From contig OY782041.1 in NCBI GenBank assembly GCA_963677595.1, positions 512,001-576,000 of the forward strand: DNA of 64,000 nucleotides. Direction: 5' to 3'. The position numbers and the translations under genes are program-made. Source of the DNA: Spirochaetia bacterium. GTDB taxonomy: Bacteria; Spirochaetota; Spirochaetia; CAKZLE01. Shown here piece by piece: positions 29,324 to 53,769 of this stretch. The stretch's first letter is position 1; each line of letters opens with the position of its first letter. Under the pieces are notes generated by a model. That model ran no database searches, was not told the DNA's origin, and saw only the letters and a program-made list of their open reading frames with translations.

Positions 29324-29326
29324 AAT

Positions 29327-35862: not shown

Positions 35863-35869
35863 AACCCCT

Positions 35870-36830: not shown

Positions 36831-37040
36831 ATGAAAAAACGATCACTGAAAGGCGTCGTAGCTTTAGCCGCAATTCTTGTTTCTGGTTTTGTGATTCCAA
36901 ATCTGGGATTGATGGTACCTGCAGCAGGGGTTGGGATTGCTGTTGGTTCTGCATATTTTGGAGCATGCGCTGTTGCTTGTGGAGCAACAGGTCCTGCTGG
37001 TTGGGGAATCTTTGGTCTGATAACAGCTTGGTCTCTCTAA
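36831..37040 (+). CDS. Hydrophobic Gly/Ala-rich peptide, putative circular-bacteriocin-like precursor
   Basis: AGGAG RBS; 69 aa; first gene of a DUF95/ABC operon; followed by a strong hairpin. Confidence 0.65.
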   Translation: MKKRSLKGVVALAAILVSGFVIPNLGLMVPAAGVGIAVGSAYFGACAVACGATGPAGWGIFGLITAWSL

Positions 37041-37054
37041 AAATTTAACATGAT

Positions 37055-37084
37055 CTACAGTAAAGGCCTTAGCCTTTACTGTAG
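37055..37084 (+). terminator. Stem-loop after the precursor gene
   Basis: CTACAGTAAAGGC-CTTA-GCCTTTACTGTAG, a perfect 13-bp stem. Confidence 0.7.
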
Positions 37085-37091
37085 TAATATT

Positions 37092-37595: not shown

Positions 37596-38140
37596 AATTC
37601 ATACTAATTCTTATTTGCGCCTTTGTTCAAACAAAAGTACAAATAGTTAATTTTTCATTTATAGATCTTTCAGATGGGGCAATACCATCAATAGTTAATT
37701 CAAACATCTATTTAGCTTTCATGACATTAATACAATTCTTTATTTATATCGTCTTAGCTAAAATATATACAAAAGCATATTTTTACTTTTTTTTATATGA
37801 TTCTGAAATAAAAGACTCAGAGCAAATTCTCTATAATTCAATTTGCAGGTCTTATATTGTATTTTTAATCTCAGGTATATTATTTCTTTTTTTTGCAAGA
37901 ATCCAACCAGGTTCTTATGAATTATATATTTTTGGCACACACAAAGATGGAAATTCTATAAATAGCTTTGTTATGTTGGCATTAGCCTTTATTCAAGCTA
38001 TAATAGTTTTTTTTCAATTTTATATACAAGTTCTTAAGCAAGAGGAAAATATCAATAAATTTCTTAGATTATTAACTCTTTGTATAATATTACTAATCGT
38101 ACATTTACCTGGAGTGATCCACTTTGGAGGAACTTTTTGA
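37583..38140 (+). CDS. Multi-pass membrane protein (possibly Yip1-like)
   Basis: About five hydrophobic segments within the operon. Confidence 0.55.
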   Translation: MQYLKFILILICAFVQTKVQIVNFSFIDLSDGAIPSIVNSNIYLAFMTLIQFFIYIVLAKIYTKAYFYFFLYDSEIKDSEQILYNSICRSYIVFLISGILFLFFARIQPGSYELYIFGTHKDGNSINSFVMLALAFIQAIIVFFQFYIQVLKQEENINKFLRLLTLCIILLIVHLPGVIHFGGTF

Positions 38141-38862
38141 TTCAAATTAAAAATATATCAAAGCAAATATCCAATAACTTAATTCTTAATAATATTAGTT
38201 TAGATTGCCCAGAAAACAGTATTTATGCACTCATTGGGCCTAATGGAGTTGGAAAAACAACATTAATAAGATGCATTCTAGGAATTTATTCAATTCAAAC
38301 GGGTAAAATATTCATAGATAAAGTGCCAGTTATTTATAATAATTTTTCAACACCATCACATGTTGGTGTTTTTACAGACGATGCAAAAATGTATCCGAAT
38401 CTTTCCGTTAAAGATAATTTAAACTATTATTATTCTTTTTATGAAAAAAAAATATTTAGCAATAATATTTTGTTAATTATTGAAGAACTTGGATTAATGA
38501 AATATTTAGATACTAAATATTATGCCCTATCAACCGGGAATAAAAGGAAGTGTGGTATAGTTAGATCCCTTTTAAATAACCCTAAAATTATTATTTGGGA
38601 TGAACCTTTCGCCTCTCTAGACCCAGAAAGCATCTTTGAATTAAAAACTCTTATTAAACATCTTAAAAGTTTGAAGAAAACAATTTTTATTACATCAAAC
38701 GATCTTAATCGTCTTGAATTGATTTATGATAAAGTAGGTTTTTTCTATACAAATGAACTTTTAGCAGAATACCAAGCAAATTCCTTAAAAACCATGTATA
38801 AGGGCTCTTCACTAGAAGAAATATATTTCAAACTAAAAAAAGAGATTGTTACATATGATTGA
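38137..38862 (+). CDS. ABC transporter ATP-binding protein
   Basis: GPNGVGKT, LSTGNKRK and WDEP; TTG start after GGAGG. Confidence 0.9.
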   Translation: MIQIKNISKQISNNLILNNISLDCPENSIYALIGPNGVGKTTLIRCILGIYSIQTGKIFIDKVPVIYNNFSTPSHVGVFTDDAKMYPNLSVKDNLNYYYSFYEKKIFSNNILLIIEELGLMKYLDTKYYALSTGNKRKCGIVRSLLNNPKIIIWDEPFASLDPESIFELKTLIKHLKSLKKTIFITSNDLNRLELIYDKVGFFYTNELLAEYQANSLKTMYKGSSLEEIYFKLKKEIVTYD

Positions 38863-39613
38863 AAATAAAATATTCCTTTTTGACTTAAAAAATATTTTAA
38901 GAGATAAAAAAACAATGATCACCGTTTTTATTAACTTACTAATCCAATTATTATTATGCTTTTCATTAGTCATAATCAAACTTACAAGCAAAGAAAGCAT
39001 TTTAGAGCCCCTTGCTATTTATATAACTGAAAATTATTCTCCTTTCTTTTTTCTTATTAACTATATTTATCCTGTCTACATATTTGTCTTATTATCTGTA
39101 ATCCCCTTTGTAATCGGATTATCACTTGTAAGTTCAGAGAAAGAAATGGGAACCTTAGAATCTTTACTATATTTACCAATTAAAAGAAGAAGTATTTTTT
39201 ATACAAAAATCATATGTCTTTTTATTGTATCTTATTGCTTATCTCTTATTTGTGTTCTAACCCAACTAATAATATTTGTAATATTTTCAGGTCCACAAAC
39301 ATTAGATCTATTGTTTTGGATTAAGTACTTACTAATATATTTACCATTCTGGATAGCCTTTATTTCTTCAATTATTACCATTATTTCCACAATTTCTAAA
39401 ACCACCAAAGAAGCTAATCAGTTTTCATTAGGTTTTTGTTTTGCTCTACTAATTTTAGTTCAAGGTAGCACCATTTTTAAAATCAATATATTTTCACATT
39501 ATTTTTTTCTGATTATTTTAGTTTTATCTGTTATACCAATTATAATGACTCTTATATGGATTGCTAGAAATTTACAAATTGAAAAAATACTTTTTAGGAT
39601 TTCAAAGTACTGA
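38855..39613 (+). CDS. ABC-2 type permease
   Basis: EKEMGTLESLLYLPI.R..I...K motif. Confidence 0.85.
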   Translation: MIENKIFLFDLKNILRDKKTMITVFINLLIQLLLCFSLVIIKLTSKESILEPLAIYITENYSPFFFLINYIYPVYIFVLLSVIPFVIGLSLVSSEKEMGTLESLLYLPIKRRSIFYTKIICLFIVSYCLSLICVLTQLIIFVIFSGPQTLDLLFWIKYLLIYLPFWIAFISSIITIISTISKTTKEANQFSLGFCFALLILVQGSTIFKINIFSHYFFLIILVLSVIPIIMTLIWIARNLQIEKILFRISKY

Positions 39614-39793
39614 TGATAATTCATCATCAATTGTGCAAAAATCAGATCCTCTAAAATAGAATTTACCACTTTTTAAAAGTCGTTTAATATGGCTCGTAGA
39701 AGTATTCAAAGCTTGAGCACAATCCTTTATTGATTCAAAATTCTCAGTTTTATTGGATATATTCCAAAAGACAATCACTGGTCTCCGTCGCAT
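39602..39793 (-). CDS. Small NUMOD1-like DNA-binding protein
   Basis: FESIKDCAQALN.S.S.I motif; GGAGG RBS. Confidence 0.55.
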   Translation of the reverse strand: MRRRPVIVFWNISNKTENFESIKDCAQALNTSTSHIKRLLKSGKFYFRGSDFCTIDDELSSVL

Positions 39794-39802
39794 ACGTTCC
39801 TC

Positions 39803-40612
39803 CTAAAACAACTCCTGCTGTCCCATATCAAGATCATAATTTGCTGTCAGCACTTCTATCTTGGTAGTCTTCCGATTCTTCGATTTCGAGTTCACACTCA
39901 TCTTCATTTCTAGTTCTCTTTGCTCCCATCCATGCTCTTTCGTGAATTCTTTCAAGATGTCACTGGGGTATGAACTCAGGAGGAACCGACCCTCAATCTT
40001 TGAAAGGTGCTCCAATAGTTGACGATAATCTTCTTCAGAATATCCATCGTAATGACCGCAGTCAGATCCGATGTAGGGCGGATCACAATAGAAGAAAGCA
40101 TCTGGAGCATCATAACTTCTGATAATCCTCAGTGCATCAGTACATTCAATATCAACTTTCTGCAGTCGAATAGCATAATCAAGCGTGAAAGAATTCCGCT
40201 TATTCATCACCTTCAATGACGTCTGACCAGTATGGTCATACCCATAGGTCCCGCCAAGCATCGAGCCAAAACTCTGTGCTGCAGTTACCCATACCGCCCA
40301 GGCGCGCTTGATTTTATCAAACATATCCGGGTTGTTATAAATCACATTTGCCTGACGGTGAATACTCCTACTATGGAGACTGATCTGAATCTCTTTTTCC
40401 AATGATACGTAGTCTCTCTGTATGACCTCATAGAAATTGATTAGTTCCGCATTGACATCGTTGATCACTTCATTCTCTGATGGTTTCTTGCTGAAGAAGA
40501 TAGCCCCTCCTCCAAGAAACGGCTCACAGTACGTTCTATGTTCTGGGATCAAGGGTAAAATGGTCGATACTAATTGCTGCTTTCCTCCGTAATACGTCAA
40601 AGGTGTCTTCAT
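39803..40612 (-). CDS. D12-class N6-adenine DNA methyltransferase
   Basis: YYGGK, EPFLGGG, EVIND and YCDPPY. Confidence 0.92.
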   Translation of the reverse strand: MKTPLTYYGGKQQLVSTILPLIPEHRTYCEPFLGGGAIFFSKKPSENEVINDVNAELINFYEVIQRDYVSLEKEIQISLHSRSIHRQANVIYNNPDMFDKIKRAWAVWVTAAQSFGSMLGGTYGYDHTGQTSLKVMNKRNSFTLDYAIRLQKVDIECTDALRIIRSYDAPDAFFYCDPPYIGSDCGHYDGYSEEDYRQLLEHLSKIEGRFLLSSYPSDILKEFTKEHGWEQRELEMKMSVNSKSKNRKTTKIEVLTANYDLDMGQQELF

Positions 40613-40641
40613 ACTTATAGTTCCTCGTTATTGATGAATTA

Positions 40642-40773
40642 GGACGATTGAACAACTGGATATTATCCGGTACCATACCGCTATTCAAAATATAAGCTTG
40701 CTGGATGGTGGTGGGTTATCCTATAGGTGTCACAAGCACCTGTTCGGGAGTTGCTGCTCCTGAACCGCTGTCC
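40642..40773 (-). ncRNA. Structured 5' leader of the methyltransferase
   Basis: Closing GGAC/GTCC plus internal stems GTTC-GGAG/CTCC-GAAC, AGGTG/CACCT, TTGAATAGC/GTTGTTCAA and GGAT/ATCC. Confidence 0.5.
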
Positions 40774-40808
40774 TTTCACAGTTCTCATTCATAAAAATTC
40801 AGTGAAAC

Positions 40809-41012
40809 TCACTTCCTATTCTTGGTCTTAAATGCCTCTTCAAATCCACAGGCAGTGCATACAAATTTCTTGCCGTTGGTAAAAAGCTTTTTCTCACACG
40901 TAGGGCATGGTCTTACTGACATCCAATAGGTCCCAGCATAGAGCCCATTGATCAGCTCTTTCTTTTCCCCTACCTGGAACATCCCTCTGGTGATACCCCC
41001 TATCGGTTCCAT
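40809..41012 (-). CDS. Small zinc-ribbon protein
   Basis: CPTC and CTAC. Confidence 0.55.
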   Translation of the reverse strand: MEPIGGITRGMFQVGEKKELINGLYAGTYWMSVRPCPTCEKKLFTNGKKFVCTACGFEEAFKTKNRK

Positions 41013-41314
41013 TTCACGGCTCCATGCAAATATTCCTCGACGGCCATACAGGACATTCCCAAGACACCTGCAAGCATCATCTCAATACCCATACCCCGAG
41101 AAGTGTGTTTGGTATGCACCACGGCTACCCCATCACATTCCAGCATCGCTTTGAGGTCTTGCTTCATCGCATCTTCCCAGGTTGCAGGATCCTCAACAAT
41201 TTCAACCGGATTGACTACCTCATACCCGGCTTTCCTCATGCGTAACGCAGCTTCCTGGAATTCTTCGCGATACTTGGGATTTTGACTGATCGGCCCCGAC
41301 AAATAGATCTTCAT
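41000..41314 (-). CDS. DUF4406 protein (nucleoside deoxyribosyltransferase-like)
   Basis: KIYLSGPIS, VVNP, W...M..DL..M.ECD and SRG..IE. Confidence 0.85.
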   Translation of the reverse strand: MKIYLSGPISQNPKYREEFQEAALRMRKAGYEVVNPVEIVEDPATWEDAMKQDLKAMLECDGVAVVHTKHTSRGMGIEMMLAGVLGMSCMAVEEYLHGAVKWNR

Positions 41315-41341
41315 ACTGCTGTACTCCTCCTGATGTACTAT

Positions 41342-42349
41342 TTAGTAATTCGGCAACGCCCGTTTATTCATCTTCACATGCACATACATGTCCTGCGTCA
41401 TGGCAGTGCTATAATGTCCGAGATATTCTGATACTGCTTTGATTGGCTGCCCATCCTCAATCATGAGGGTAGCGAAGCTGTGCCGTAAGCGGTGTGCTGA
41501 TACCGGTCTCCCGATAATCATCTTTCCATATCGATGCAACTCCCGAGATATGTAATTCCTGGAGAATTTCCCTCCTCCGCGATTACAGAACAAGGCTCCC
41601 CGCTGAAATATCCCACCTGGATGGAATTCCTTCATAATCTTTCTGAAGAGATCCTGGTCTATGTAGATAATCCGCTCTTTCTGGCCCTTCCCCATGACGG
41701 TGATCTCATATTCATCCTGGACCGTGAGCTCATAATTACCCCACGTGATATTCACCATTTCAGAGACACGGCATCCGGTATTAATCAAGAATCGGGCAAA
41801 CAGGTGAATCCGCGGGTTGATATGGGAAAGATGATCCATGAATTCATTCAACTCATCCCGTGACAAGATCCGCTGGTACGATACCGCATTGGTCTGTTTC
41901 TTCTGGGACTTGATTGATCGGAACAGCTGATCAATTTTGTATTGCTCGATCACCGTCCAATGATCAGGATTTTGTTTTGAAATCTCAGTCACGATCTTTT
42001 TCACCTGGGCTTTCCGCACATTCACCGTATTGGCTGAGTATCGCTTACTGCTTCGCGCCTCCTCGATGTAGGCGACCAGTGATGGAAGGTCAAAATCATA
42101 ATCACTGAATTCGAGCCAGTAGATCAGCTGTTTATTCTTCTCTACATAGGAGCCAAACCGGACATCATCCAGAAGAAAGTCTACCTGCTTCTCGGTAAGG
42201 TATTTCTTGGTATCCACAGTAACAGCGAGTGAAGAAACAAAGCAGGCAGTATGGTTTCTGAAGGGGAATCCTTTCAGGTTGGTATACCGGGCATGCTTCT
42301 TACATTCAGTGTTTTCGGTATCAAAAAATACGCACGTTTTACACGCCAT
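41342..42349 (-). CDS. Second tyrosine recombinase (XerC/D-like)
   Basis: TGCRVSE, KGQKER, HRLRHSFAT, LGH and MY. Confidence 0.9.
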   Translation of the reverse strand: MACKTCVFFDTENTECKKHARYTNLKGFPFRNHTACFVSSLAVTVDTKKYLTEKQVDFLLDDVRFGSYVEKNKQLIYWLEFSDYDFDLPSLVAYIEEARSSKRYSANTVNVRKAQVKKIVTEISKQNPDHWTVIEQYKIDQLFRSIKSQKKQTNAVSYQRILSRDELNEFMDHLSHINPRIHLFARFLINTGCRVSEMVNITWGNYELTVQDEYEITVMGKGQKERIIYIDQDLFRKIMKEFHPGGIFQRGALFCNRGGGKFSRNYISRELHRYGKMIIGRPVSAHRLRHSFATLMIEDGQPIKAVSEYLGHYSTAMTQDMYVHVKMNKRALPNY

Positions 42350-42495
42350 AATCTCTCTCTTTTCTCCCCTCAAAATTTGTTTTGGTAGCGAATTTTCATA
42401 AAAGTAAAATGTAAAAATATTTCTTTACTTTATCGGTAATTATAAGCCGTCAAGTACGACTTTGTTAACGGAATGCTAATTCTGTATACTTTCTT

Positions 42496-43608
42496 CTAAC
42501 TAGCTTGTTCATCACCGCGCTTGGGCACCTCGACATCATCGGTATTCGTCACCCAAACCCCGTCTTGCAGCTCCATAAACGTCCGGCATTTCCGGCACAT
42601 CCGCACCCCGGTAACACTGCCGAGCTCAGTACTCCCGCAGGTCGGACACACGGTAGGAGCCTCTGGAATCCGGTTCTTCTCTTCAGGACGTTTGACCATC
42701 GCCAAGGCTTCAATCTGGGAGGAGAATACCTTGTACCGGTACCCGGCCTTCTCTGCGAACCAGGCTATGTTCTGGACCTTGTCAGTAAAGAATATCTCGA
42801 GCATGAAGAGTACTTTCTCCATTCCGAAGCGGGAGAGATGCTGTGAAATCAGGTCGATCTCTTCAGTGGTCAAGAGAGCTGGATCATACCCAAAGCGATC
42901 ATGGTATGCTGTGCAAAATGCCTTGGTGATTTCCTGAACTGGATCTGAGAGAGAATGATCCTCTTGGTTTCTCTTTCTCTCTTTAAGCATTTTATTTCTT
43001 TCTTTAAGCATTTGTTGCCCATCACCGTACGTACGGCTAGCCGCTGGGCGGTCAGCTATACCACCGGTCTGTTTTTCATTCTGAGCCGGTGGTATGGATT
43101 CCGACCCTCCGGGTGTATGTGTAGTTCCAGCCGGAGGGTTGTTTTCTGTACCTTCGGCCGGGATTCCTTTTTTTACCGGTGGTATGGATTCTGTACTACC
43201 GGTCATAAATCCGAATAATGCCAGTTGGCCAGCTTTCTCAGGATCGTAGGTTTCCTCAATCTGTGGCTCCCATCGGAAAAAGTTAACCTGGATAAACACA
43301 TCATGCAGCTTGCCGGAAGAGTCCCGCCGTTGGACGTAGGAGATCAGCCCCTTCGTCTTCAGGAACGCCTTAGCCCGTTTAATCTTCACCTGTCCCCATC
43401 CAAGCCCTTTACTCAAGTACGTGTTATTTGCATGAATGACATTCGTCTCCTGTAGCCTGGCGGTGAAGAGTAGATGGTCATAGAGTTGTTTGGCCTCCAA
43501 TCCTTCTTGCCGGTTTGCCAGGAACATCTTATAGAGCCCGACCGAACAAAAAATGAGATCATAATCCTTATCGATGTGTACATTCACAATATTCTGATCA
43601 TCCATCAA
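42496..43608 (-). CDS. Phage replication initiator with internal iterons and a C-terminal zinc ribbon
   Basis: Winged-helix-like N-terminus, low-complexity linker encoded by repeats, CPTC and CRKC. Confidence 0.7.
   Translation of the reverse strand: MMDDQNIVNVHIDKDYDLIFCSVGLYKMFLANRQEGLEAKQLYDHLLFTARLQETNVIHANNTYLSKGLGWGQVKIKRAKAFLKTKGLISYVQRRDSSGKLHDVFIQVNFFRWEPQIEETYDPEKAGQLALFGFMTGSTESIPPVKKGIPAEGTENNPPAGTTHTPGGSESIPPAQNEKQTGGIADRPAASRTYGDGQQMLKERNKMLKERKRNQEDHSLSDPVQEITKAFCTAYHDRFGYDPALLTTEEIDLISQHLSRFGMEKVLFMLEIFFTDKVQNIAWFAEKAGYRYKVFSSQIEALAMVKRPEEKNRIPEAPTVCPTCGSTELGSVTGVRMCRKCRTFMELQDGVWVTNTDDVEVPKRGDEQAS
43041..43202. repeat. Four iteron-like repeats with a 45-bp period (probable phage origin)
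   Basis: CCG..GG...CGG units start at 43041, 43086, 43131 and 43176. Confidence 0.7.
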
Positions 43609-44309
43609 CTTGCCTCCTGTGATATTATGTGATGTTCAATGAGTTTTCGTCTGATATAGTCAACTCCTCGTTGGTATACGAGGGTTTTAAGTGAAATACT
43701 GACTTCTCCATTTGCCTTATTGAACCGCTGCTCAATAACCCGGAAGTATCCCCGATCCACAAAGGTTTGATACGGGATATTATTCTGCTGCAGTACTTGA
43801 ATCTCACGAAGGAAGGTAAAGAGCTTATTTCGCCCGATCCCAGGGATACCCAGAGTCTTGGCAACAGACGCCATTTCGATCGCCGTCTTAGAGCCTGCAA
43901 CCTGATCATAGAAATCGGCCTTCGGCTTGAGTTCGAGGAGTTGTTGCTGCTGTTGATCGATCTTTACCTGAGCGACCTGCAGGGCCCTGGCTATGACTAG
44001 ATCAGGGGAGTTCCAGGCTTTCTCAACTTTGATAAAGTATTCCCTGACCTCTTTCCCCTTCTCTGACCGGGACAACATACAGATGTGTTTCGCGATATCG
44101 AGATTGAGGAGGAAGTCTTCAAATGGCCTACCGCCGGTACTTTGTAAGGGTAACCTGACAAAGTCTATTCCTTCAATCAGATCCTCGAGGTGGGGACCAA
44201 TCCATGAAGCATACCGCATCCTGATTTCCAGGGCGGTATAGAGATCATGCGCAGATACGGAATCTGTACCGATCTCCTGCTGATAGGTAATCGGAACCAA
44301 TTCGTTCAT
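43605..44309 (-). CDS. Antirepressor (AntA/AntB + KilAC)
   Basis: VSAHDL, TGGRP, AKHICM, AWNSP, KPKADFYD and IGRNKLF..LR. Confidence 0.9.
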   Translation of the reverse strand: MNELVPITYQQEIGTDSVSAHDLYTALEIRMRYASWIGPHLEDLIEGIDFVRLPLQSTGGRPFEDFLLNLDIAKHICMLSRSEKGKEVREYFIKVEKAWNSPDLVIARALQVAQVKIDQQQQQLLELKPKADFYDQVAGSKTAIEMASVAKTLGIPGIGRNKLFTFLREIQVLQQNNIPYQTFVDRGYFRVIEQRFNKANGEVSISLKTLVYQRGVDYIRRKLIEHHIISQEAS

Positions 44310-44599
44310 AAGGTGACTCCCCGTGCATCGGGGAGCTCATCCTCCTCATCGAACCTATCCGAACTCCGATAATCATCCAACCGGGCAAACACGAGCTGGG
44401 TCTTCTGGCACAGCTGCAGTTGGATGGTACTTGATGAGATTTCAAGCGGTTCTTGAAAGTGTGGGCACCAATCGCCACACTCGATGCCGCTTGTCGACAT
44501 TAGCGGACATTCCTGTTGGATATATGCACCTTTTCGACAAATAAGCAGTAATCCATCTGATGTAATCATTCCGGTAATCATGGTTTTCCCCCTATACAA
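44306..44599 (-). CDS. Cys-rich phage protein
   Basis: QECP..CGDWCPHF..LQLC; coupled to neighbours. Confidence 0.55.
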   Translation of the reverse strand: MYRGKTMITGMITSDGLLLICRKGAYIQQECPLMSTSGIECGDWCPHFQEPLEISSSTIQLQLCQKTQLVFARLDDYRSSDRFDEEDELPDARGVTL

Positions 44600-44607
44600 T
44601 GAAGCTG

Positions 44608-44799
44608 CTACAGAATCTGTGGCAGCTTGTTTCCTGATGAGATGATAGATTGTTCCAATAACGTGATATACTTCCCTACGAGATGATATGAGAGCGGTGT
44701 GAGATCTGATCTGGGATCATGGGCTTTCGCAGATATTCCCGCTGATAGGATCGATCGTATCTTTAGATTGGTGATCTGGTAGTCAAATACTCTACTCAT
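44608..44799 (-). CDS. Hypothetical phage protein
   Basis: ORF overlapping the upstream stop codon. Confidence 0.45.
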   Translation of the reverse strand: MSRVFDYQITNLKIRSILSAGISAKAHDPRSDLTPLSYHLVGKYITLLEQSIISSGNKLPQIL

Positions 44800-45473
44800 G
44801 CTTCTACCTGGATACTCAACTGCACTTGCTCACCCGCAACGAGACCTCGATAGAACGCACGAGAACCGCGTGGAGCCTTTACCGATACCATTTCTTCACC
44901 TCCTAGCTGGTCAAGATACTCATGCAGCGCCTTATCCTCAGTTACGACCACTGCCCGAGTCTCGGGATCGATTTCTTCCTGGTGGTACATCTGGGAGAGG
45001 TTATAGGCGATGGTGTAGGCCATACCAAGCCGGAACTCACGTCTGTACTGCTGCTTGGCCTGTCTGGGTATCTGTTGCTTTGCTATCCGATCGATTGCAC
45101 CGATCAGATACACGGCCATCCATGTGGCAGTTGCGATGTGGGCTTTTTTCCCAACAAATCGCACGCGGAAAAAATCTTTACGATAATACCCGCCAGAATA
45201 TCTTGAATACACCGCTCTACAGAAATTGGTCCTGGCGGTCACATCATAGATAGTTCGCCGCCAATCCTTTAGTCTGTGTCCGGATGTAATCTCAGATTCC
45301 TCAATCTGCTCCTGTTCAATCTCAAGGTCTTGTATTGAGACCTTGTATTTCATCATGAGCTTATGAGCCATGATTGCAGCGGCTTCCGCTTCGGCCTGAA
45401 CAGGAGAACCTTTCAGAGCTAAGAGCTTTTGAATCTTCTGCAGTACACGATCGAGCTGATCTCGCTCCTCCAT
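44796..45473 (-). CDS. DUF2786-domain phage protein
   Basis: KIQKLLAL..SP..AEAEAA...A.KLM.KY. Confidence 0.8.
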   Translation of the reverse strand: MEERDQLDRVLQKIQKLLALKGSPVQAEAEAAAIMAHKLMMKYKVSIQDLEIEQEQIEESEITSGHRLKDWRRTIYDVTARTNFCRAVYSRYSGGYYRKDFFRVRFVGKKAHIATATWMAVYLIGAIDRIAKQQIPRQAKQQYRREFRLGMAYTIAYNLSQMYHQEEIDPETRAVVVTEDKALHEYLDQLGGEEMVSVKAPRGSRAFYRGLVAGEQVQLSIQVEA

Positions 45474-45474
45474 G

Positions 45475-45594
45475 TTACCCTCTCCCCTGCCCCGAGAGAT
45501 CAACTCCCATATCGGTGAGGTCTTTGGTGCTGTACCGGATACTGATACATATCAATCCTAGAGAAACGATACCTATACAGATACATGCAATCAT
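45475..45594 (-). CDS. Small single-TM peptide
   Basis: AAGGAG RBS; MIACICIGIVSLGLICISIR. Confidence 0.45.
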   Translation of the reverse strand: MIACICIGIVSLGLICISIRYSTKDLTDMGVDLSGQGRG

Positions 45595-45615
45595 CAATGT
45601 CTCCTTATGAAAATT

Positions 45616-45672
45616 GCCGGTCTTTCCCGGCTGCCTAGCAGTTGGCGCTACTTCTCGTCTTTCCGAGCCGTC
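45616..45672 (-). repeat. Two covarying hairpins with a GAAAGA loop
   Basis: GACGG-CTCG-GAAAGA-CGAG and GGCA-GCCGG-GAAAGA-CCGGC. Confidence 0.65.
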
Positions 45673-45704
45673 AAAAACATAAGCATGCTGCTTCTTGCAG
45701 CGGA

Positions 45705-45775
45705 TAGCACCGGCAGGATTCGAACCTGCGATAAGTAGGTGTGACAAATCCTCCTAATCAAACCGATTCAGTGCT
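45705..45775 (-). ncRNA. tRNA-like element 3 (acceptor and T-arm intact, D/anticodon arms degenerate)
   Basis: AGCACTG/CGGTGCT-A acceptor; GCAGG-TTCGAAT-CCTGC T-arm. Confidence 0.7.
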
Positions 45776-45909
45776 GTATGCCGGGTTCCCCCGGCATCAA
45801 AATTGGAAATTACTATGAAACGTATGTCTACCAATCATCGAAAGAAAACTGATATACATTGCACCTGTACGCCGGTGCCTGCTTTATTTCCAGCTCATAC
45901 GGGCAAGGA

Positions 45910-46134
45910 TTACTCATTAGGTCCTGGGGCGATATCAATGAAGAACCTCTGGCCTTCCTTGAAACAGGAGTCTGTATCGTTGGTTTTCACGAAAAAGCTT
46001 GAGGCAGCAAGCAGAGTAAAGGGTGATGAACTTTCATCATCCTGAGAAGATTCTTGACCAAGCACAACCACATCTACTGCCTTCAGGCCATTCCCATAAT
46101 CTGATACCTTATGACTGATACACTCGAACCTCAT
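45910..46134 (-). CDS. Small hypothetical phage protein
   Basis: GAGGAG RBS; MRFECISHKV...F.EGQRFFIDI. Confidence 0.55.
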   Translation of the reverse strand: MRFECISHKVSDYGNGLKAVDVVVLGQESSQDDESSSPFTLLAASSFFVKTNDTDSCFKEGQRFFIDIAPGPNE

Positions 46135-46173
46135 TGACAGCTTCTCCTCTCTGAACAATCACTACAGATATAT

Positions 46174-46285
46174 TGGGGGATGGTGGACTTGAACCACCGA
46201 CCCTGCGGGAACCAGGGCTTATCCTATATTGCCTGGCTATATATCGCCTGGGTCCCGATGCTCTGACCATCTGAGCTAATCCCCC
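46174..46285 (-). ncRNA. tRNA-like element 2 (anticodon loop replaced by a long hairpin)
   Basis: GGGGGAT/ATCCCCC-A acceptor, TA-GCTC-AGATGGTCA-GAGC D-arm, GGTGG-TTCAAGT-CCACC T-arm; 112 nt in total. Confidence 0.8.
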
Positions 46286-46463
46286 AGGTACCGGCAACGC
46301 CGGTCCTATGAAAAGTATGGGAACATTTCAGGTTGTTCCCGGACCTCCCAACATGTACTCATCACACTCTGCAGGTGGCAGATTCGAGGGGCCGATGATT
46401 CCCCTCCGGTCGGTCAGGCATTGGCATTCTACCTGGTCTCGTATAGCTACAAACATCGGGTTA

Positions 46464-46517
46464 TGGATTGGACGGGACTTGAACCCGCAGCCGCTACTGG
46501 CTCCTATATTCCAACCC
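46464..46517 (-). ncRNA. tRNA-like element 1 (54-nt mini-tRNA with G3-U70 and A73)
   Basis: GGGTTGG/CCAATCC-A acceptor, AGCC-AGTAGC-GGCT arm, GCGGG-TTCAAGT-CCCGT T-arm. Confidence 0.7.
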
Positions 46518-46573
46518 GTTTCTCGTCTCCCCTGGTAAGGTGTAGCCATTTCGCCTTACAGATTCACCAGACT

Positions 46574-46807
46574 CTACGATCTGATGTTTTTATAAACAGC
46601 AACAACTTCTTGTGCATCTATAAACTCGTCCAACTGTTTTTTTGTGAACATGACCCGTCCATTCAACATTTTCATGTAATCAATTTTCCTGTTCCCCATC
46701 ATTCTCCGAAGTGTTGACTCCGAAATTCGGAGATACTTTGCAGCTTCAGATACCAGTAGTAATGGAGAATTCAATTCGTTAATTGAAACCGTTGCAAGAT
46801 TCTTCAT
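46574..46807 (-). CDS. Excisionase-like HTH_17 protein
   Basis: LL.VSEAAKYLRISESTLRR....KI...K....V.F....LDEFI. Confidence 0.85.
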   Translation of the reverse strand: MKNLATVSINELNSPLLLVSEAAKYLRISESTLRRMMGNRKIDYMKMLNGRVMFTKKQLDEFIDAQEVVAVYKNIRS

Positions 46808-46902
46808 AATCCCTCCTGCCGGGTATCGTGATACCCAGAACGTTATATAAAATGCTGAAAACTGTAGGGCCGGCCACTGAGGCGCAGTGTAGCCCTGCAG
46901 CA

Positions 46903-47082
46903 TCAGCAATCTATTTCTTTTGTTTCACGGGTATACCGTTCAAGAATTGCCTGGCGAATCCACCAACCTTTTTTCTGGCCCTGAGTTTTTAGAAGTAACT
47001 CAAGGTTTTTGTTTTCTGTAGGTGTGAGGTCCGTCCGAACTGTACAAGTTTGTTTCTCTTTGATTACATCAACATCAATCAT
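46903..47082 (-). CDS. 59-aa ribbon-helix-helix-like protein in the Cro position (absent from the ORF track)
   Basis: MIDVDVIKEKQTCTVRTDLTPTENKNLELLLKTQGQKKGWWIRQAILERYTRETKEIDC; starts 6 nt after the -10 box. Confidence 0.6.
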   Translation of the reverse strand: MIDVDVIKEKQTCTVRTDLTPTENKNLELLLKTQGQKKGWWIRQAILERYTRETKEIDC

Positions 47083-47088
47083 GTTGCT

Positions 47089-47154
47089 ATAATAGTCTCA
47101 CTTCTGTGACATGTCAACCATTTTTTTCCAGTTTTGTACCTTTTGTGATACAAT
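47089..47154. promoter_or_regulatory. Lysis/lysogeny switch promoters
   Basis: Minus: TTGACA(47112-47117)-17-TATTAT(47089-47094) with palindrome TGACATGTCA. Plus: extended -10 TGaTACAAT (47146-47154). Confidence 0.7.
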
Positions 47155-47159
47155 TTGCC

Positions 47160-47540
47160 ATGGACCAAGATATTTTAGAGTTTTGGAAACGATTCGATAC
47201 TCTATGCCGAGCACAAGACCTTTCTCTTCTGGAAGTATCAAGCCTAACAGGTATAAGCTATTCAAATATCAGGAATCAAAGGACAAAACTCATACTTCCA
47301 AAGACTATTGCTACGCTAAAAATTGCCAAAGCTCTGAACACAAGTGTTGAGTATTTAATAACTGGATCGGGATCAGAGCAGATTGTGGACCCCGTCATAG
47401 ATATTGTATTAAAACGTGAACCCCTTAAAGATCTGATGATTAAAATGATCAGTTTAAACGATAAACAACTAGCAGCCATTTCCACAGTTGTCGATTCCTA
47501 TATGCCGGATCAACCGAAACATCAGAGCCAGGTCGGATAA
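47160..47540 (+). CDS. CI-like XRE repressor
   Basis: FWKR...TGISYS.I...P......KIAKALNTSVEYLITG; divergent from the early operon. Confidence 0.85.
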   Translation: MDQDILEFWKRFDTLCRAQDLSLLEVSSLTGISYSNIRNQRTKLILPKTIATLKIAKALNTSVEYLITGSGSEQIVDPVIDIVLKREPLKDLMIKMISLNDKQLAAISTVVDSYMPDQPKHQSQVG

Positions 47541-47756
47541 TCCCATTTCCCCAAGTACCTGAAAAGTACTGACGTTTGGGAGGATATCCAAGAAAAACTT
47601 ATACATGACTTATTTACTACTCTTTATCTTGTCTTTGCTACCACATCTTAAATGATGTTTTTATATCTCATGCTGTACTTATACCCTCTTATGGGTTATC
47701 ATTATTATAGATCCTGTAGGAATGGGTAATGAGTAATACTAATTTAAAGGATTTAT

Positions 47757-47955
47757 ATGCCATATTATTTTGTTAATGATGTTGCTCAGCATGATGGATA
47801 CCATGAAGTTCATGATAGTTCTTGTGGATGGATTGGTCTAAAAAAACATTACACAGACTTAGGTTGGCATGCAAACTGCCAGGAAGCAATGAATGCAGCA
47901 ATATCCTCTTGTAGATGGTTGTAAGTTTTGTTGTTTCCATTGTCATAAACGATAG
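47757..47955 (+). pseudogene. Frameshifted small Cys/His-rich protein
   Basis: MPYYFVNDVAQHDGYHEVHDSSCGW...LG...NCQEA continues in another frame as VDGCKFCCFHCHKR*. Confidence 0.5.
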
Positions 47956-47968
47956 AGAATATACAATA

Positions 47969-48385
47969 ATGAACTCATGCCTTAATTGTTATAATCTGAC
48001 ACAAAACTGGATAAGTATGGAGCCAGCAACTCATAATCAAACCCAATCTGAACCTGTTTCAGAAGAGAGAAGAGAAATTCTTAAATCCACTGTAACCCCC
48101 TTTAATAGGAATAGACCTTCCTGGATTTCATGTTCTTATAGTGTTTGGGATTATGAAAGAGTGTTAGAACCCTTACAATTACACGAAGCTATTACGAAAT
48201 CGAGAAATAACTGTCCAATGTTTACTCCTTTCTCTAAACACAAAGAAAAACTTATCATTCAGGGAAAAGTAATCAGGAATAAAACAAGAAAAGAAAATTT
48301 AAAACAAACAATAATTAGAATATGGAGACCTGTAATCACTGCAGTGCTTATTGGCTTAGTAACCACCTATATCTTGAAGAAATAA
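47969..48385 (+). CDS. Hypothetical Cys-containing protein with a C-terminal TM
   Basis: CLNC start and hydrophobic C-terminus. Confidence 0.55.
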   Translation: MNSCLNCYNLTQNWISMEPATHNQTQSEPVSEERREILKSTVTPFNRNRPSWISCSYSVWDYERVLEPLQLHEAITKSRNNCPMFTPFSKHKEKLIIQGKVIRNKTRKENLKQTIIRIWRPVITAVLIGLVTTYILKK

Positions 48386-48400
48386 TAATAGGAATATTCA

Positions 48401-49375
48401 ATGGCTGAAACGAAAAACATAAGTGAAATGGCAAATAGAATATCGGAAGAGATATTCAAAGTATTTGGATGGGAAAGAGTTGGTCAGAATGATAAAAACT
48501 GGCCATGTATCAATCCAGATCACAAGAAGAAGACTCACCCTACGGATTGTGTTTTTACATATCCTGATCCTTACTCGAATTCGCATACATACTTCAATTG
48601 TGACTTGAAAAGTTATAAGGAAACATCAATTACAACAAAATCATTTCGAGACTCATTAATAAGTTTAGCTATGGGGAGTTCCTGTGCAAAAAAAAGTAAG
48701 GAATGGCAAAACGCTTATATTACAAATGAAGTAAATTCTAATATTCATGGATTATTATTTATCTTTAACTATAATAATTTATATGATAAAGACTTATATA
48801 TTGAGTTAGAAAAAATTACCAAAACAGCTTTACCATTGAATATCAATACAAAATTATTTCTTATAACTCCAAAAGATATTAGACTTTTAAATACAATTGC
48901 TAATGATATCATGGTATCTATAGGAAAAAATGTATTACCATCATTTGAGAATATTTCCTTTTTTTATCCGGATCAAGATAGCAGGATCACAACGAAATCA
49001 AATTGGAAAAAAGCTGCTACGATAGAAATGTTGAAAAGCCAATGGATAATCTTAAAACATCGTAAAGATAGTTCAATCCCTAATTATGATGGTTTGACAA
49101 TTTACTATAAAAGCAGAGGGACGATTAGAGAAGAATTCGTATATTTAATTGACTATCTAGTGCATTGGCAGATAATTAGCAGCATCAACAATATTACAAT
49201 CAAATTAGTCAATCCAGATGAAAGTGCATTTGAGTTAGCTGAAAAAGCCAAATCTACTTACTGTTCAAGATATAGTATTTATGAAAATCATGAATCTACA
49301 ATAAAAAGTATAAAAATCAAATCAGTTCAAAATGTAATTCCTACTTTTTATGAAGCAGAAATTGGTATGGAGTAA
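48401..49375 (+). CDS. PD-(D/E)XK-like nuclease, GapS4a-like candidate defence protein
   Basis: E...IF..FGW...C...H...THP.D.VF.Y.DP...DLKSY pattern. Confidence 0.55.
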   Translation: MAETKNISEMANRISEEIFKVFGWERVGQNDKNWPCINPDHKKKTHPTDCVFTYPDPYSNSHTYFNCDLKSYKETSITTKSFRDSLISLAMGSSCAKKSKEWQNAYITNEVNSNIHGLLFIFNYNNLYDKDLYIELEKITKTALPLNINTKLFLITPKDIRLLNTIANDIMVSIGKNVLPSFENISFFYPDQDSRITTKSNWKKAATIEMLKSQWIILKHRKDSSIPNYDGLTIYYKSRGTIREEFVYLIDYLVHWQIISSINNITIKLVNPDESAFELAEKAKSTYCSRYSIYENHESTIKSIKIKSVQNVIPTFYEAEIGME

Positions 49376-49380
49376 TTAAT

Positions 49381-50499
49381 ATGGAGTTTAAATCAGTTTT
49401 TTACCCTACAGAAATGGATTTATATGATGCTTTCATCTCAAATCACCAGAAGGTGACAAATAATTATCTAATAACGTTGCTGAGAGATAAGGGTATTTTG
49501 GTTTCCAATGATTGTTCACGAGAATTCTTAGTAGGTTATGTTTCACAATTAAATTTTGATTACCTCGAATTTAAAAACATTTCAAACTATCTTACACCTA
49601 GCAGTAGATCGGAAAAAACTACTTCAGAAATTATTGAAACTGAAATCAATGATGATGAAATACTACAGGGCTTTGATAATCTAAAAGAAGCAAGAGGGAG
49701 TCATAATGAAAATTATAATATTGTTCTTCTTGAAGGAGCAAACACCACAAGAATAGAAATTTTCTATGAAGAAGTTGATCATTCAAAAACAAGAGTAATC
49801 CAAAAAGTCACTAAAGAAGGATTTATTGATATAGTAAAAACTGATAAAGGAATAAAAATCCGTCATACATCAAATGATAGAGTAGCGAGAATTAAAGATT
49901 CTTTTATTAAACAGATCGCAGAGAACAAGGACGATAAAATTGAACCTATTAGAATTTCATTTAGCGGTATTGCAGATTTAAAATACCAAACCATATTCTT
50001 TACTAGTTTATTGAAATATATAAAAGGATTGACTCCTGAGACTGTTGTCAAAATAAGTCTTAGTAGAGATGATATTACCCCACTTGATTTAGATATTGAC
50101 GATGCAGAAAAAGAGGACCTAGAGGATAATATGCGTCAATGTATTAGAAAAGCAAGATTTGATGGGGAAAGTCTTTTAGAAACAGACATCTACCAAGAGT
50201 TGAAGCAAAAAGGATATTATTTAACATCAATGCGTTGGATTTCTCTTGAGAATCTAAATAACCCGAGGAAATTTGAATTTGAAGCTTCATTTGTGGATAG
50301 AGGATATGCAATTGTTTTTGAATATTCGCTTAAGGGAGTATATAATTTTAAAAAAGAAAAATACACAAACCTAATTACAAAAATACCAGAAGATGAGAAA
50401 AAAAATCTAATATCCAGATTTGAAACTGCAGCAAATCAGGTTTATACTAAAATAATTAACGAAATCAAAGAGTTGAAAAATGACAATAAGAACATATAA
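49381..50499 (+). CDS. GapS4b-like partner protein
   Basis: L..LLRDKGILV...RE.L.....L....EF......EK.TS N-terminus; coupled to the nuclease gene. Confidence 0.5.
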   Translation: MEFKSVFYPTEMDLYDAFISNHQKVTNNYLITLLRDKGILVSNDCSREFLVGYVSQLNFDYLEFKNISNYLTPSSRSEKTTSEIIETEINDDEILQGFDNLKEARGSHNENYNIVLLEGANTTRIEIFYEEVDHSKTRVIQKVTKEGFIDIVKTDKGIKIRHTSNDRVARIKDSFIKQIAENKDDKIEPIRISFSGIADLKYQTIFFTSLLKYIKGLTPETVVKISLSRDDITPLDLDIDDAEKEDLEDNMRQCIRKARFDGESLLETDIYQELKQKGYYLTSMRWISLENLNNPRKFEFEASFVDRGYAIVFEYSLKGVYNFKKEKYTNLITKIPEDEKKNLISRFETAANQVYTKIINEIKELKNDNKNI

Positions 50500-51160
50500 G
50501 ATCAATTATAACTTTGATTTGGATATCCTGTTTAAAGGGATGCAATCCTGCCCATATAATGAAGATGAAAAAAGTGGGTACTTCATTGATAGCTTCATTA
50601 ATAATCAAATTGAAGGACGATTTGTTTTAAAAAGAATCTTCTCCGAAGAATCTATTTCTCCAATAGATGGAGAAATTCAACTTAACGAAATAATTCAATT
50701 TGAGGTTTTTCATTTCAAGATTTTTCATGATAATAAAATACTGATGCTCTATAATTCTCCAAGAAGCACATCAATTTTCTTCACTAGTATTAACTCTCTA
50801 TTCGATTTTTCAATATCAATAGAAAAATGTGATTTGAATCTTTTAAACTTTATTGAAAACGTGAAATTAAAAACTGATATCAATGAAGTTATATATTTAG
50901 AATTATGTAATATCTCATTTTCGAATCTTACAAAGGGAAAGGTCATAATTTCAGGCAATGAAAATGTTATACCATATATTGAAAAAGCAACATTCCATTC
51001 CACAAACTATGAGATAAATCGATTAGGTTTAAAAATAATTTTTAATGACAAACCAATTAGATTAGATATTACAAATACTGGGTCTTATAGGGTTGCTGAT
51101 TCCTATGCCCATTTTGTTCTCCCGAAGATCTCTGAAGCTATACTTGATTATTTTGAATGA
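50480..51160 (+). CDS. Third gene of the candidate defence operon
   Basis: Overlaps the upstream gene; same AT-rich composition. Confidence 0.55.
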   Translation: MTIRTYKINYNFDLDILFKGMQSCPYNEDEKSGYFIDSFINNQIEGRFVLKRIFSEESISPIDGEIQLNEIIQFEVFHFKIFHDNKILMLYNSPRSTSIFFTSINSLFDFSISIEKCDLNLLNFIENVKLKTDINEVIYLELCNISFSNLTKGKVIISGNENVIPYIEKATFHSTNYEINRLGLKIIFNDKPIRLDITNTGSYRVADSYAHFVLPKISEAILDYFE

Positions 51161-51369
51161 TCGTTTTATGTAACCAGTTATGTAGCCAATTGAGTGCTAT
51201 TGACCTATATAATTTGGTATATTTTAATATTGATTAACTTTTTATTTTGTTATATAGTATAAATATATAAAATTTTAAATGAGGCTTCTTGCGGTTCAAC
51301 CCACATTCCTCACTATTTCTCAGCAAAAAACGGGTATTTAATTTCGGGCTAAAATCGGTTTAAAAAGCG

Positions 51370-51732
51370 CTACCCTTCATCGTCCAAGAGGACCAAAATG
51401 GCTTCATACGCATCCTGAGAGAGCTTCTTCATGGCATTCATCGTCTTCTCCAGGGTTCTCCTGTTCTCAATCCATGGTTGGAGGACCTCAGCCTGCTGCT
51501 CTGTGAGCTTCCTGGCTACGGTCTTCCCGCCCTTTTTGGTCGTCCAATAGTAATACGGTCCATGCTTGGCCTCAGTGTCTGTATGACACTTGCACGAGGG
51601 GTTCCCGCAGGTAAGAAACCGTTTGGAGATGGATCCTGACCAGATAAATTCGATCGTGCTCAGTTCCTTGGCGAGTTCCTGCTGTTTGCGGCGAAGTACC
51701 TGAAGGCGCTTCTGTGCCGTCTCGGTGGTCAT
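51370..51732 (-). CDS. DUF6788-like IS accessory protein
   Basis: GSIS.....CGNPSCKC......HGPYYYWT; lies inside the IS ends. Confidence 0.7.
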   Translation of the reverse strand: MTTETAQKRLQVLRRKQQELAKELSTIEFIWSGSISKRFLTCGNPSCKCHTDTEAKHGPYYYWTTKKGGKTVARKLTEQQAEVLQPWIENRRTLEKTMNAMKKLSQDAYEAILVLLDDEG

Positions 51733-51822
51733 GACTTGACTCCTCTCTTGTCCTACTGTATAATACAGTAGGTTCAGTGATCAGTCAAGTCCTGTTTCCA
51801 CGACCGCTACAGGAGGATACCG

Positions 51823-53526
51823 ATGGCCAGTACTCCGCCCCTTTCAACCCTGTTTCAGCATACCAGAATCTATACCCATTCCTACCTGCCCATTGCGGCG
51901 GCCTACTGCCGCATGCTCGGGTTGAGAGACATCGTGGATGCGGCGGTGGAGACCCGTATGCAGCTATCTCCGGGGCTCGTGGTACAGACGATGGTGCTCG
52001 ATGTCCTGCATGGACGGTCGCCGCTGTATCGGATCGAGCAGTTCATCGAGCAGCAGAACCGCAGCCTATTGCTGGGACAGGAGGTAGATCCGCATCTGTT
52101 CAATGACACGAACATAGCTCGGTCCCTGGATGCGATCTTCGATGCCGGCCCATCGAAGATTGTGACCGAACTGGGGATTCGGGCAGCACAGGTCTTCGAT
52201 CTGGATATGCATGCCCTCAGTTACGATACTACCAGTACGAGTGTCTGGGGGGAATACCGGGGGAGTGAGCAGGAAAAGACCCCGGGGCCTTCGATCGTCC
52301 TGGGGCACTCCAAGGATCACCGACCGGATCTCAAGCAGTTCATGACGGAGTTACTGTGCGTGGATCATGGGGTCCCAATCTTCAGCAGTACCCTCAATGG
52401 GAACTCCTCAGACAAGACGTCTAACAATGCGATGCTCACACGGATCAGTACACTGCTCTCCCGACATGGGTTGGGAGATGGGGCCTGTATCTATGTTGCA
52501 GACTCGGCCATGGTGACGCAGGAGAATCTGGAGGCTTTAGGGTCGATGCCATTCATCAGCCGTCTTCCGGCAACCTACGGCGCATGTGACCAGGCAATAA
52601 GGGAAGCGATCGGAGCGGGTCGCTGGAGTCCCATAGGCATGATGGCTGAAACACCAACAGGGAAGAACCGGCCTCCTGCGATCTATAAGGGGTGCGAGAC
52701 GACGGTAACGTTGTATGAAAAGCCCTATCGCGGGGTCGTGATACATTCGAGTTCCCATGATAAGCGAAGGCAGAAGAAGATTGACAAAGCGATTGAGCAA
52801 TCGTTGAAGGAGCTGAACGGGAAATTGAAGAAAGTTCAGCGACAGTATTACTGCAGCGAAGATGCGCAGGTTGCTGCTGCCAACCTCGCTGCGGTCTCTT
52901 CCCCGCTGCACTCGTTAACGGTTACGATCCAAGAAGTGGCGGTTCGGCGTCGTGGACGTCCCCCGAAGGAGGGTCCGCCGCCTGTAGATCTGCGGTATGA
53001 GTTGAACTGGGAGATCACCGAAAAGTCGGACAAGCTGCAGGTGCTCAGAGAGCAGGCAGGATGTTTTGTGCTGCTTACCAATGTTGCTGTTGCATCGCTT
53101 GATGCCGCATCGGTACTGCGTACGTACAAAGGCCAGTATGGGATCGAGAGTGATTTTTCATTCCTCAAGGATCCCCTGGTAGTCAATGACCTGTTTCTGA
53201 AAACCCCTTCCCGCATAGATGCATTGGGGATGATTCTCGTGATCGCCCTGATGGTCTGGCGGTTGATGGAGCGGCAGATGCGGCGGTATCTCCAGAAGGA
53301 AGGTACTACGGTACCAGGCTGGGACAACAAACCGACGGCAAAGCCGACTTCATTCATGATGAGTACCGTGTTTGGCGGTATCATGGCGGCAGAGATGGGA
53401 GCAGAAGCGGTGCTGGTAAATCCGCTCTCTTCCCGTCAGTTGGCCTTCCTGTCTGCATTGGGTCTTGATGAACGCGTATTCTACGACAAGGGGGTGAGGT
53501 GTGTCCTGACCTCTCTGCATGCATGA
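51823..53526 (+). CDS. IS1634-family DDE transposase
   Basis: YDTTS, GHSKDHRPDLKQ, VADSA and YK.QY.IE..F.FLK.P. Confidence 0.9.
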   Translation: MASTPPLSTLFQHTRIYTHSYLPIAAAYCRMLGLRDIVDAAVETRMQLSPGLVVQTMVLDVLHGRSPLYRIEQFIEQQNRSLLLGQEVDPHLFNDTNIARSLDAIFDAGPSKIVTELGIRAAQVFDLDMHALSYDTTSTSVWGEYRGSEQEKTPGPSIVLGHSKDHRPDLKQFMTELLCVDHGVPIFSSTLNGNSSDKTSNNAMLTRISTLLSRHGLGDGACIYVADSAMVTQENLEALGSMPFISRLPATYGACDQAIREAIGAGRWSPIGMMAETPTGKNRPPAIYKGCETTVTLYEKPYRGVVIHSSSHDKRRQKKIDKAIEQSLKELNGKLKKVQRQYYCSEDAQVAAANLAAVSSPLHSLTVTIQEVAVRRRGRPPKEGPPPVDLRYELNWEITEKSDKLQVLREQAGCFVLLTNVAVASLDAASVLRTYKGQYGIESDFSFLKDPLVVNDLFLKTPSRIDALGMILVIALMVWRLMERQMRRYLQKEGTTVPGWDNKPTAKPTSFMMSTVFGGIMAAEMGAEAVLVNPLSSRQLAFLSALGLDERVFYDKGVRCVLTSLHA

Positions 53527-53747
53527 ACTTCGTAGGTGTACCTGCGTCTGATCCTCAGAACCTATGAGAAGGCTGGTTACTGTCCTGATCATCAGCATGT
53601 CTGTTCAGACGGGGTAGCAACCAGGCGGATTTGCCGATTTTTATGCCGTGTGGAGGATCGGTAAGGATGAATAGCCCTTCGTAGTCTCAATCCTTTCCTG
53701 AAATGGAAAATCCTGCTATGTGTGCGTCATGAAAGTGAGGAATGTGG

Positions 53748-53769
53748 GGTTCAACTCCCCTTACCTCCA
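53748..53769 (+). repeat. attR core
   Basis: Copy of the tRNA-Ala 3' end. Confidence 0.9.

Follow-up and report, generated by a model that had tools for sequence, protein, structure and literature searches.

The early lytic operon of a temperate spirochaete prophage carries a tRNA-shaped gene whose anticodon loop is replaced by an insert of 42 nt. By its sequence this element is a real non-decoding tRNA-like gene, and it occupies a slot in which related prophages carry tRNA top halves of their own: slot position, strand and tRNA top half are conserved, and the lower half is free. A non-decoding tRNA mimic is likely because the codon-reading loop has given way to the insert and because tRNA-shaped elements lie in the same early-gene region of seven related prophages. 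Such a mimic would be made early in the lytic cycle and would most likely work by way of its elbow and acceptor end, probably decoying defence proteins that recognise tRNA. The window is the whole stretch of DNA that was analysed, 64,000 nucleotides in length, and positions without a locus label refer to it (Table 1).

The body of the element, read from 46285 to 46174, scores 47.6 bits against the Rfam tRNA model (RF00005), 44 nt occupying the place of 7 in the model. The acceptor is Watson–Crick paired throughout (7/7), as are the D stem (4/4) and the T stem (5/5), so that the perfect acceptor, D and T arms described by the initial annotation hold; the tRNA scaffold it saw at this place is confirmed as well and lies on the minus strand, the annotation having named no strand. 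The tertiary nucleotides U8, A14, G15:C48, G18G19, A21 and A73 are all found. In essence, the body is that of a canonical tRNA (7-bp acceptor, D and T arms, tertiary nucleotides), while the 5-bp stem and 7-nt anticodon loop with U33 are missing, 42–44 nt standing in place of the 7, and ARAGORN at its default settings does not call the element as a tRNA.

Folding of the element strand gives a z of -2.99, with 2 of 200 shuffles equally stable. In the minimum free energy fold (ViennaRNA, -46.2 kcal/mol) the second CCAGG pairs with CCUGG, and GACCC pairs with GGGUC. The continuous long hairpin first proposed, in which the CGGGA/UCCCG stem runs on into the first CCAGG/CCUGG and then UAUAU/AUAUA, is one of two folds, but it takes up only about 9–11% of the unconstrained ViennaRNA ensemble and reaches -45.1 kcal/mol if forced. 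Tertiary contacts, which lie outside the fold model, could tip the element toward the cloverleaf. The insert, earlier put at about 45 nt in lieu of the anticodon loop, is real, its length being 42 nt between the CGGGA and UCCCG strands. Its imperfect tandem repeat, also seen earlier, stands up to shuffling: the match of 11/12 nt was reached in 1 of 2000 shuffles, and it is this repeat that makes two alternative pairings with CCUGG possible. When one repeat unit is removed in silico a long non-decoding arm still remains, and the loss of the anticodon thus predates the duplication.

Among the 49 ARAGORN calls in the genome, tRNA-Ala(UGC) is nearest to the element body, yet the G3:U70 identity pair of tRNA-Ala is missing and replaced by G3:C70. 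Charging is governed by the anticodon and, for alanine, by the G3:U70 pair; by these established identity rules the element, which has neither, is probably uncharged. Its missing CCA is normal for this host, since none of the 46 host tRNA genes checked encodes one. A pattern made of the T arm and the 3' acceptor strand (the 3' half) found 8 IMG/VR stretches, 7 of them of tRNA-Tyr(GUA) type, and none in 150 other genomes; this half may descend from a Tyr tRNA or have converged on one.

The prophage also contains terminase and capsid genes. From 47117 onward the early operon runs in the order cro-like ORF, excisionase-like gene, ncRNA slot, antirepressor and replication gene. No canonical tRNA lies in the ncRNA slot of this prophage; it holds two further top-half elements, and the one at 46464-46517 has a 9-mer in common with the insert. 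The small GC hairpin motif in the slot, which has no Rfam match here, occurs in at least 121 IMG/VR matches (L264-L384), very often just before a tRNA or tRNA-like gene, and a non-coding block at 45830-45900 (-), adjoining the tRNA-like elements, is conserved with the sister prophage G001. The idea of an att remnant was rejected, as the att repeats sit at 15451 and 53746.

Other cargo lies further away. Within the prophage, the AT-rich stretch of three genes at 48401-51160 (+) corresponds to Hp1, Hp2 and Hp3 of PADLOC, which make up the defence system known as 3HP. A very AT-rich moron (~28-31% GC) at 37050-39613 (+) runs against the phage strand and encodes a SpoIIM-like membrane protein, an ABC ATPase and a permease, and a gene just inside attR (51823-53526) is transposase-like, judged from its sequence only. 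Directly outside attR, at 53845-55492 (+), lies an AbiEi/AbiEii toxin–antitoxin pair, which shows that this type of tRNA-end-modifying toxin is found in the host; nothing links it to the element.

Table 1. Positions of the tRNA-shaped gene, its parts and the surrounding prophage features in the window.
Feature	Position	Strand	Details
tRNA-shaped ncRNA gene	46174..46285	-	Rfam RF00005, fold, identity nucleotides
Acceptor of the tRNA-shaped gene	46285-46279/46181-46175	-	7-bp stem
D arm of the tRNA-shaped gene	46276-46260	-	
T arm of the tRNA-shaped gene	46198-46182	-	
Discriminator A73 of the tRNA-shaped gene	46174	-	G3:C70; CCA not encoded
42-nt insert in anticodon-loop position	46211..46252	-	closed by CGGGA/UCCCG stem (46257-46253/46210-46206)
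Imperfect direct repeat within insert	46225..46251	-	copies 46251-46240 and 46236-46225; 11/12 identical, period 15
Prophage, 38 kb	15451..53769	.	24-bp att repeats: 15451-15474 in tRNA-Ala(GGC), and 53746-53769
Integrase	15557-16702		prophage gene
Early lytic promoter, Sigma-70-like	47089..47117	-	TTGACA-17-TATTAT, 11/12; consensus match only; predicted driver of the operon holding the tRNA-shaped gene
cro-like ORF, 58 aa	46906..47082	-	without family match; role inferred from position; 10-nt insert match at 46946-46955
Excisionase-like HTH_17 gene	46574..46807	-	Pfam PF12728, PHROG 66; directly upstream of ncRNA slot
cI-like repressor gene	47160..47540	+	PHROG 8/4; divergent from early operon
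Antirepressor (AntA + KilAC)	43605..44309	-	downstream of, and in same operon as, the tRNA-shaped gene
Replication gene	42496-43608	-	after antirepressor in same operon
Second tRNA top-half element, minimal, 54 nt	46464..46517	-	acceptor and T arm, G3:U70, A73; Rfam 22.6 bits, sub-gathering
Third tRNA top-half element, 71 nt	45705..45775	-	acceptor and T arm, degenerate lower half, A73; Rfam 24.8 bits, sub-gathering
Terminator-like hairpin	46319..46340	-	35 nt upstream of the tRNA-shaped gene; kept in sister prophage G001, one compensatory pair change
Small GC hairpin motif	45616..45631	-	widespread in phages, often directly before tRNA or tRNA-like element

Relatives were chosen by a replication-protein profile, which matched in 10 of 401 genomes; the replication-gene matches G372 and G213, together with locus L219, were left out of the slot count, being without an early region in the available contigs or belonging to a different element. 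In all eight prophages with a contiguous interval, this one included, tRNA top-half elements lie between the excisionase and replication genes, one to three in each. Over 25,491 bases in the eight Spirochaetia prophages, all 15 T-arm elements of the slot are on the lytic strand and the opposite strand has none; the genome background predicts 0.34 elements, and related prophages are not independent of each other in these counts. The remaining 28 kb of the present prophage holds none. Only one of the 15 is a normal tRNA, the tRNA-Ser(UGA) in G005; 14 of the 15 are without a normal anticodon arm, and 14 of the 15 pass the closure rule or Rfam.

The variants differ widely below the top half. One element in G325 has an intact body and a long insert as here, the replacement being 83 nt of unrelated sequence, and the G001 element has a divergent body and a 22-nt loop. 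Two families of anticodon-less elements are common to G312, G195 and G265, where the homologs are kept with compensatory changes. Acceptor and T pairing is complete (100%) in five aligned family elements, and 9 of the 12 pairs are changed on both sides. In part this covariation stems from different tRNA ancestors and so reflects ordinary tRNA evolution. A73 is found in 13/13 tallied non-canonical slot elements (a tally that omits one G325 element that failed the closure rule) compared with 27/46 host tRNAs. The lower halves of the slot elements are unrelated to one another. Eight natural variants are alike only in their tRNA top half, which suggests that the work is done by the elbow and acceptor end and not by the cargo.

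Several further RNAs were observed in these regions. Three genomes share homologous tRNA-like elements (L396:7737-7815, L397:8492-8566, L398:8031-8107) with a 9-10-nt loop in which a Leu-type triplet (UAG or GAG) is followed by AGGC. A second class of slot element (L396:7892-7960, L398:8247-8316, L397:8625-8691, L395:11926-11999, L216:10437-10526), mostly without a clear D stem, has in common the pyrimidine motif U-U/A-UCCCU on the 3' side of its single arm. In the same early slot of G156 (L263:9312-9390) lies a 76-nt element with G3:U70 that resembles only the tRNA-like domain of tmRNA (Rfam tmRNA, 35.4 bits), a possible SmpB/AlaRS-binding mini-RNA. At L219:5603-5669, in a satellite-like element with a shared replication gene, an int-alpA RNA match (35.7 bits, just sub-gathering) follows the integrase.

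Searches beyond these prophages returned little of direct kinship. BLAST of 45600-46700 against 60 relatives gave 4 short matches beyond the own genome: a 40-nt match in G001, the only one in a slot, a normal tRNA in G028 and two more of 22-23 nt. In INPHARED the element matched 8 records, over 29 nt at most. The scaffold-plus-insert pattern matched in 6 of 400 other Spirochaetia genomes, each time beginning with an ordinary tRNA, and it missed the G325 element because the insert there is longer than the allowed gap. The pattern AATATAGG matched 81 IMG/VR stretches, none of them homologous. Queries with DUF2786, the replication protein and the XerC-like protein found no relatives of the prophage in IMG/VR and metagenomes, and among the 39 distant loci found with the antirepressor no comparable cassette was seen.

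The comparison of inserts among homologs suggested by the initial annotation came out in two ways. The same design with unrelated inserts recurs, in G325 and in IMG/VR, where 81 of 104 distinct pattern matches, among the matches listed, are closed tRNA scaffolds with a 52-82-nt middle (6 of those 81, among the matches listed, contain an internal T loop). For this insert, however, no homolog was found by BLAST against relatives or in the INPHARED, IMG/VR and Spirochaetia pattern searches, so that selection on the element after insertion cannot be shown. An (A/G)CAGCAA motif occurs in 11 of the 120 IMG/VR tRNA-scaffold inserts listed (L001, L002, L036, L044, L047, L065, L080, L102, L115) and suggests a separate conserved insert family; the present insert was rejected as a member, having at most 8 nt in common with any of those inserts. 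A CsrA sponge (AGGA in loops) was dropped, as AGGA is not kept in the relatives, judged by eye only.

The best explanation, to which we give a probability of roughly 0.4, is that the element is a processed, uncharged tRNA mimic acting via its top half, most likely as a decoy for host proteins that recognise the top half or the 3' end. It would be transcribed from the promoter at 47117, cleaved at its 5' end by RNase P (the acceptor has 7 bp, U stands at -1, and RNase P RNA is present in the genome), then trimmed at its 3' end and given CCA as in host tRNAs. The product, escaping charging, would be available as an uncharged mimic early in the lytic cycle. Its target is a guess: tRNA-attacking defence proteins, for example nucleotidyltransferases of the AbiEii/MenT type or anticodon/stem nucleases. 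The insert would be tolerated cargo, derived in part from local duplication, and its main effect the removal of decoding.

This explanation draws on the conservation of the slot with its strand count, on a top half that is kept while lower halves differ, on the like design in G325 and on the lack of a splicing route. By analogy, T5 RNA1/RNA2, YrlA and AbiEii/MenT offer precedents: M. smegmatis YrlA, with its 7-bp acceptor-like stem, is cleaved by RNase P and receives CCA (PMC4201824), and AbiEii/MenT enzymes are described as adding nucleotides to tRNA 3'-CCA ends (10.64898/2026.01.19.700257). Several points count against it. The same source indicates an apparent preference of the S. agalactiae AbiEii for class II tRNAs, and the AbiE pair here sits outside the prophage. 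The anti-defence phage tRNAs of PMC11464382 and PMC12445682 replace cleaved tRNAs in decoding and are not decoys, and the normal tRNA-Ser(UGA) in the slot of G005 fits a simple supply of tRNA.

It is possible, if rather unlikely, that the top halves serve as mRNA punctuation: cleavage at them by RNase P/RNase Z would divide the early mRNA and uncouple ant/rep from cro/xis, with the excised RNA, insert included, as a by-product. All 15 elements lie on the lytic strand of one operon within one interval, the features kept are only those that processing needs, and RNase P is reported to cut mRNAs and phage RNAs (PMC11143913). A single site would be enough, however, and yet up to three different elements stand in tandem. 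Furthermore, the element studied here retains an intact D arm and G15:C48, neither of which is required in minimal RNase P substrates.

Unlikely, too, is a decaying pseudo-tRNA, that is, a former phage tRNA knocked out by a recent insertion and duplication and now neutral, as most elements of this type in the early regions of phages would be. No search found the insert anywhere else, the duplication within it looks recent, its interior is no more stable on folding than shuffles (p=0.084), a normal tRNA-Ser fills the same slot in G005, and degenerate tRNA-likes are common in phages. Decay would nevertheless have to accommodate slot elements that nearly all lack a normal anticodon arm (14/15) while their top halves are closed, and the anticodon-less homologs kept with compensatory changes across G312, G195 and G265. 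The arm that persists with one repeat unit fewer, again long and non-decoding, also places the loss of the anticodon before the duplication.

The initial annotation had the scaffold displaying an aptamer or a guide. As for an aptamer, the searches gave no conserved homolog of the insert. The guide idea is another matter: in its most developed form, which we consider doubtful, the element would be a tRNA-scaffolded antisense regulator like C4 of P1: the loop would pair with a repressor-sense transcript and push the phage toward lysis, the targets being a PRE-like leader across cro here (by analogy with lambda PRE) and, in G001, the coding part of cI. A lytic-sense stretch of 10 nt in the cro-like gene (46946-46955) recurs in the insert, with p=0.002-0.006 if only that gene is considered and ~0.05 over the immunity region; the third element likewise has a 10-nt lytic-sense match to this gene. 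Both elements would pair with a plus-strand transcript, for which a promoter-like site facing cI lies at 46783-46810; the duplex of loop and plus strand comes to -15.2 kcal/mol, equalled by 1 of 60 shuffles. In G001 two sites on the antisense strand of cI (L216:9139 and 8799) match the loop of that prophage's element (L216:10437-10526) over 12+10 nt (0/3000 shuffles).

These matches do not extend to the other elements. Under one rule applied to all, an own-immunity match at p<=0.05 is found in 3 of 14 elements, exactly the three that prompted the idea; the six other prophages contribute 10 elements and no such match. The same threshold is passed by 5/98 cross-phage controls (Fisher p=0.06), and the 10-nt match of the insert to the cro-like gene lies at their level. 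Nor are IMG/VR tRNA-likes enriched, with 4/69 non-canonical and 8/90 canonical among the matches listed (160 of 241 loci, those with long flanks), and the guide claim is accordingly not upheld. The lytic/ant transcript contains no C4-type complement (longest 8 nt, p=0.63), and no match at E<=10 was found in 44000-48000 to the Rfam C4 family, that of the C4 antisense RNA of P1/P7, which has a parallel in the P4 CI RNA. Part of the G001 match is the pyrimidine motif common to 5 of 6 aligned elements; the 12+10-nt match to its own cI is not replicated in other family members and stands unexplained. A broader version, in which spirochaete temperate phages use tRNA bodies as a stabilising chassis for swappable antisense guides against their own repressor transcript, the duplicated CCAGG unit toggling between a closed cloverleaf and a guide-exposing fold in an RNA-level lysis–lysogeny switch, seems highly doubtful.

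An intron spliced out to give a working tRNA is extremely improbable: ARAGORN with introns allowed does call tRNA-Leu(CAG) with a 35-nt intron, and introns are predicted in Lak phage tRNAs (10.1101/356790), but U33 results from none of the 18 excisions compatible with a stem, a 7-nt loop and a normal variable region, neither the splicing endonuclease EndA nor RtcB was found in a search of the genome (95.4% complete), the body, short variable loop included, resembles an Ala tRNA and not a Leu tRNA, and tRNA-Leu(CAG) and both Ala tRNAs are already encoded by the host. Since no excision restores U33 and no EndA/RtcB was found, we take the element not to be a spliced tRNA, in agreement with the earlier view of a natural tRNA scaffold with a replaced anticodon loop and no intron; Rfam scans over the element and the surrounding region likewise match no intron family.

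The preferred reading, a non-decoding mimic with a decoy role, has relatives of form among known systems. T5 RNA1/RNA2 (NC_005859 T5s03, T5s06; 125-144 nt), annotated as 'tRNA-like stable RNA with unknown functions', have acceptor, D and T arms around a long arm without an anticodon loop and fold with the same layout, and in that sense the kind of element described here is already known. The T5 RNAs, however, have a variable arm and are encoded within a virulent phage's tRNA cluster, whereas our element, a predicted RNA, lies in a temperate-phage early operon and has a short variable loop. It falls outside canonical tRNA, intron-containing tRNA, C4 and YrlA, and shares the structure of T5 RNA1/RNA2 without their cluster location.

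The other parallels are more partial. Lak megaphage tRNAs with 'enigmatic' introns (10.1101/356790) are likewise phage tRNA genes of unusual length that have additional sequence around the anticodon, but their inserts are identical across cohorts, some with insert-less counterparts, while the present insert is unique and not excisable to a canonical arm. C4 of P1/P7 is also a small structured RNA in an antirepressor operon, and an RNase P substrate (PMC11143913), as the element is predicted to be; C4 pairs with ant mRNA (PMC12197685), whereas the element has no such complement and no Rfam C4 match and is a true tRNA derivative. YrlA Y RNAs are non-decoding tRNA mimics too, with D and T arms and an acceptor-like stem, yet they are permuted and lie beside Ro60 (PMC4201824), whereas the ends of our element are on the acceptor stem; no Ro60/TROVE gene (PF05731) was found in the genome, nor an Rfam YrlA match at the element. 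T5 tRNA-Lys against PARIS (PMC11464382) and tRNA-Thr against P2-OLD (PMC12445682) are phage tRNA genes in conflict with tRNA-attacking defences and have, like the element, an altered anticodon arm, but they still decode and replace a host tRNA, which the element cannot do.

In the literature covered, which takes in few subscription papers, no paper was found that describes cassettes of tRNA-like elements in the early operons of phages that are temperate or infect spirochaetes. The new part is the conserved, swappable early-operon slot in temperate spirochaete phages: anticodon-less tRNA-likes fill a defined, hypervariable position in one temperate-phage family, which makes the slot a compact, testable system. 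If the decoy reading is true, these RNAs would counter host defence in another way than the replacement tRNAs already known.
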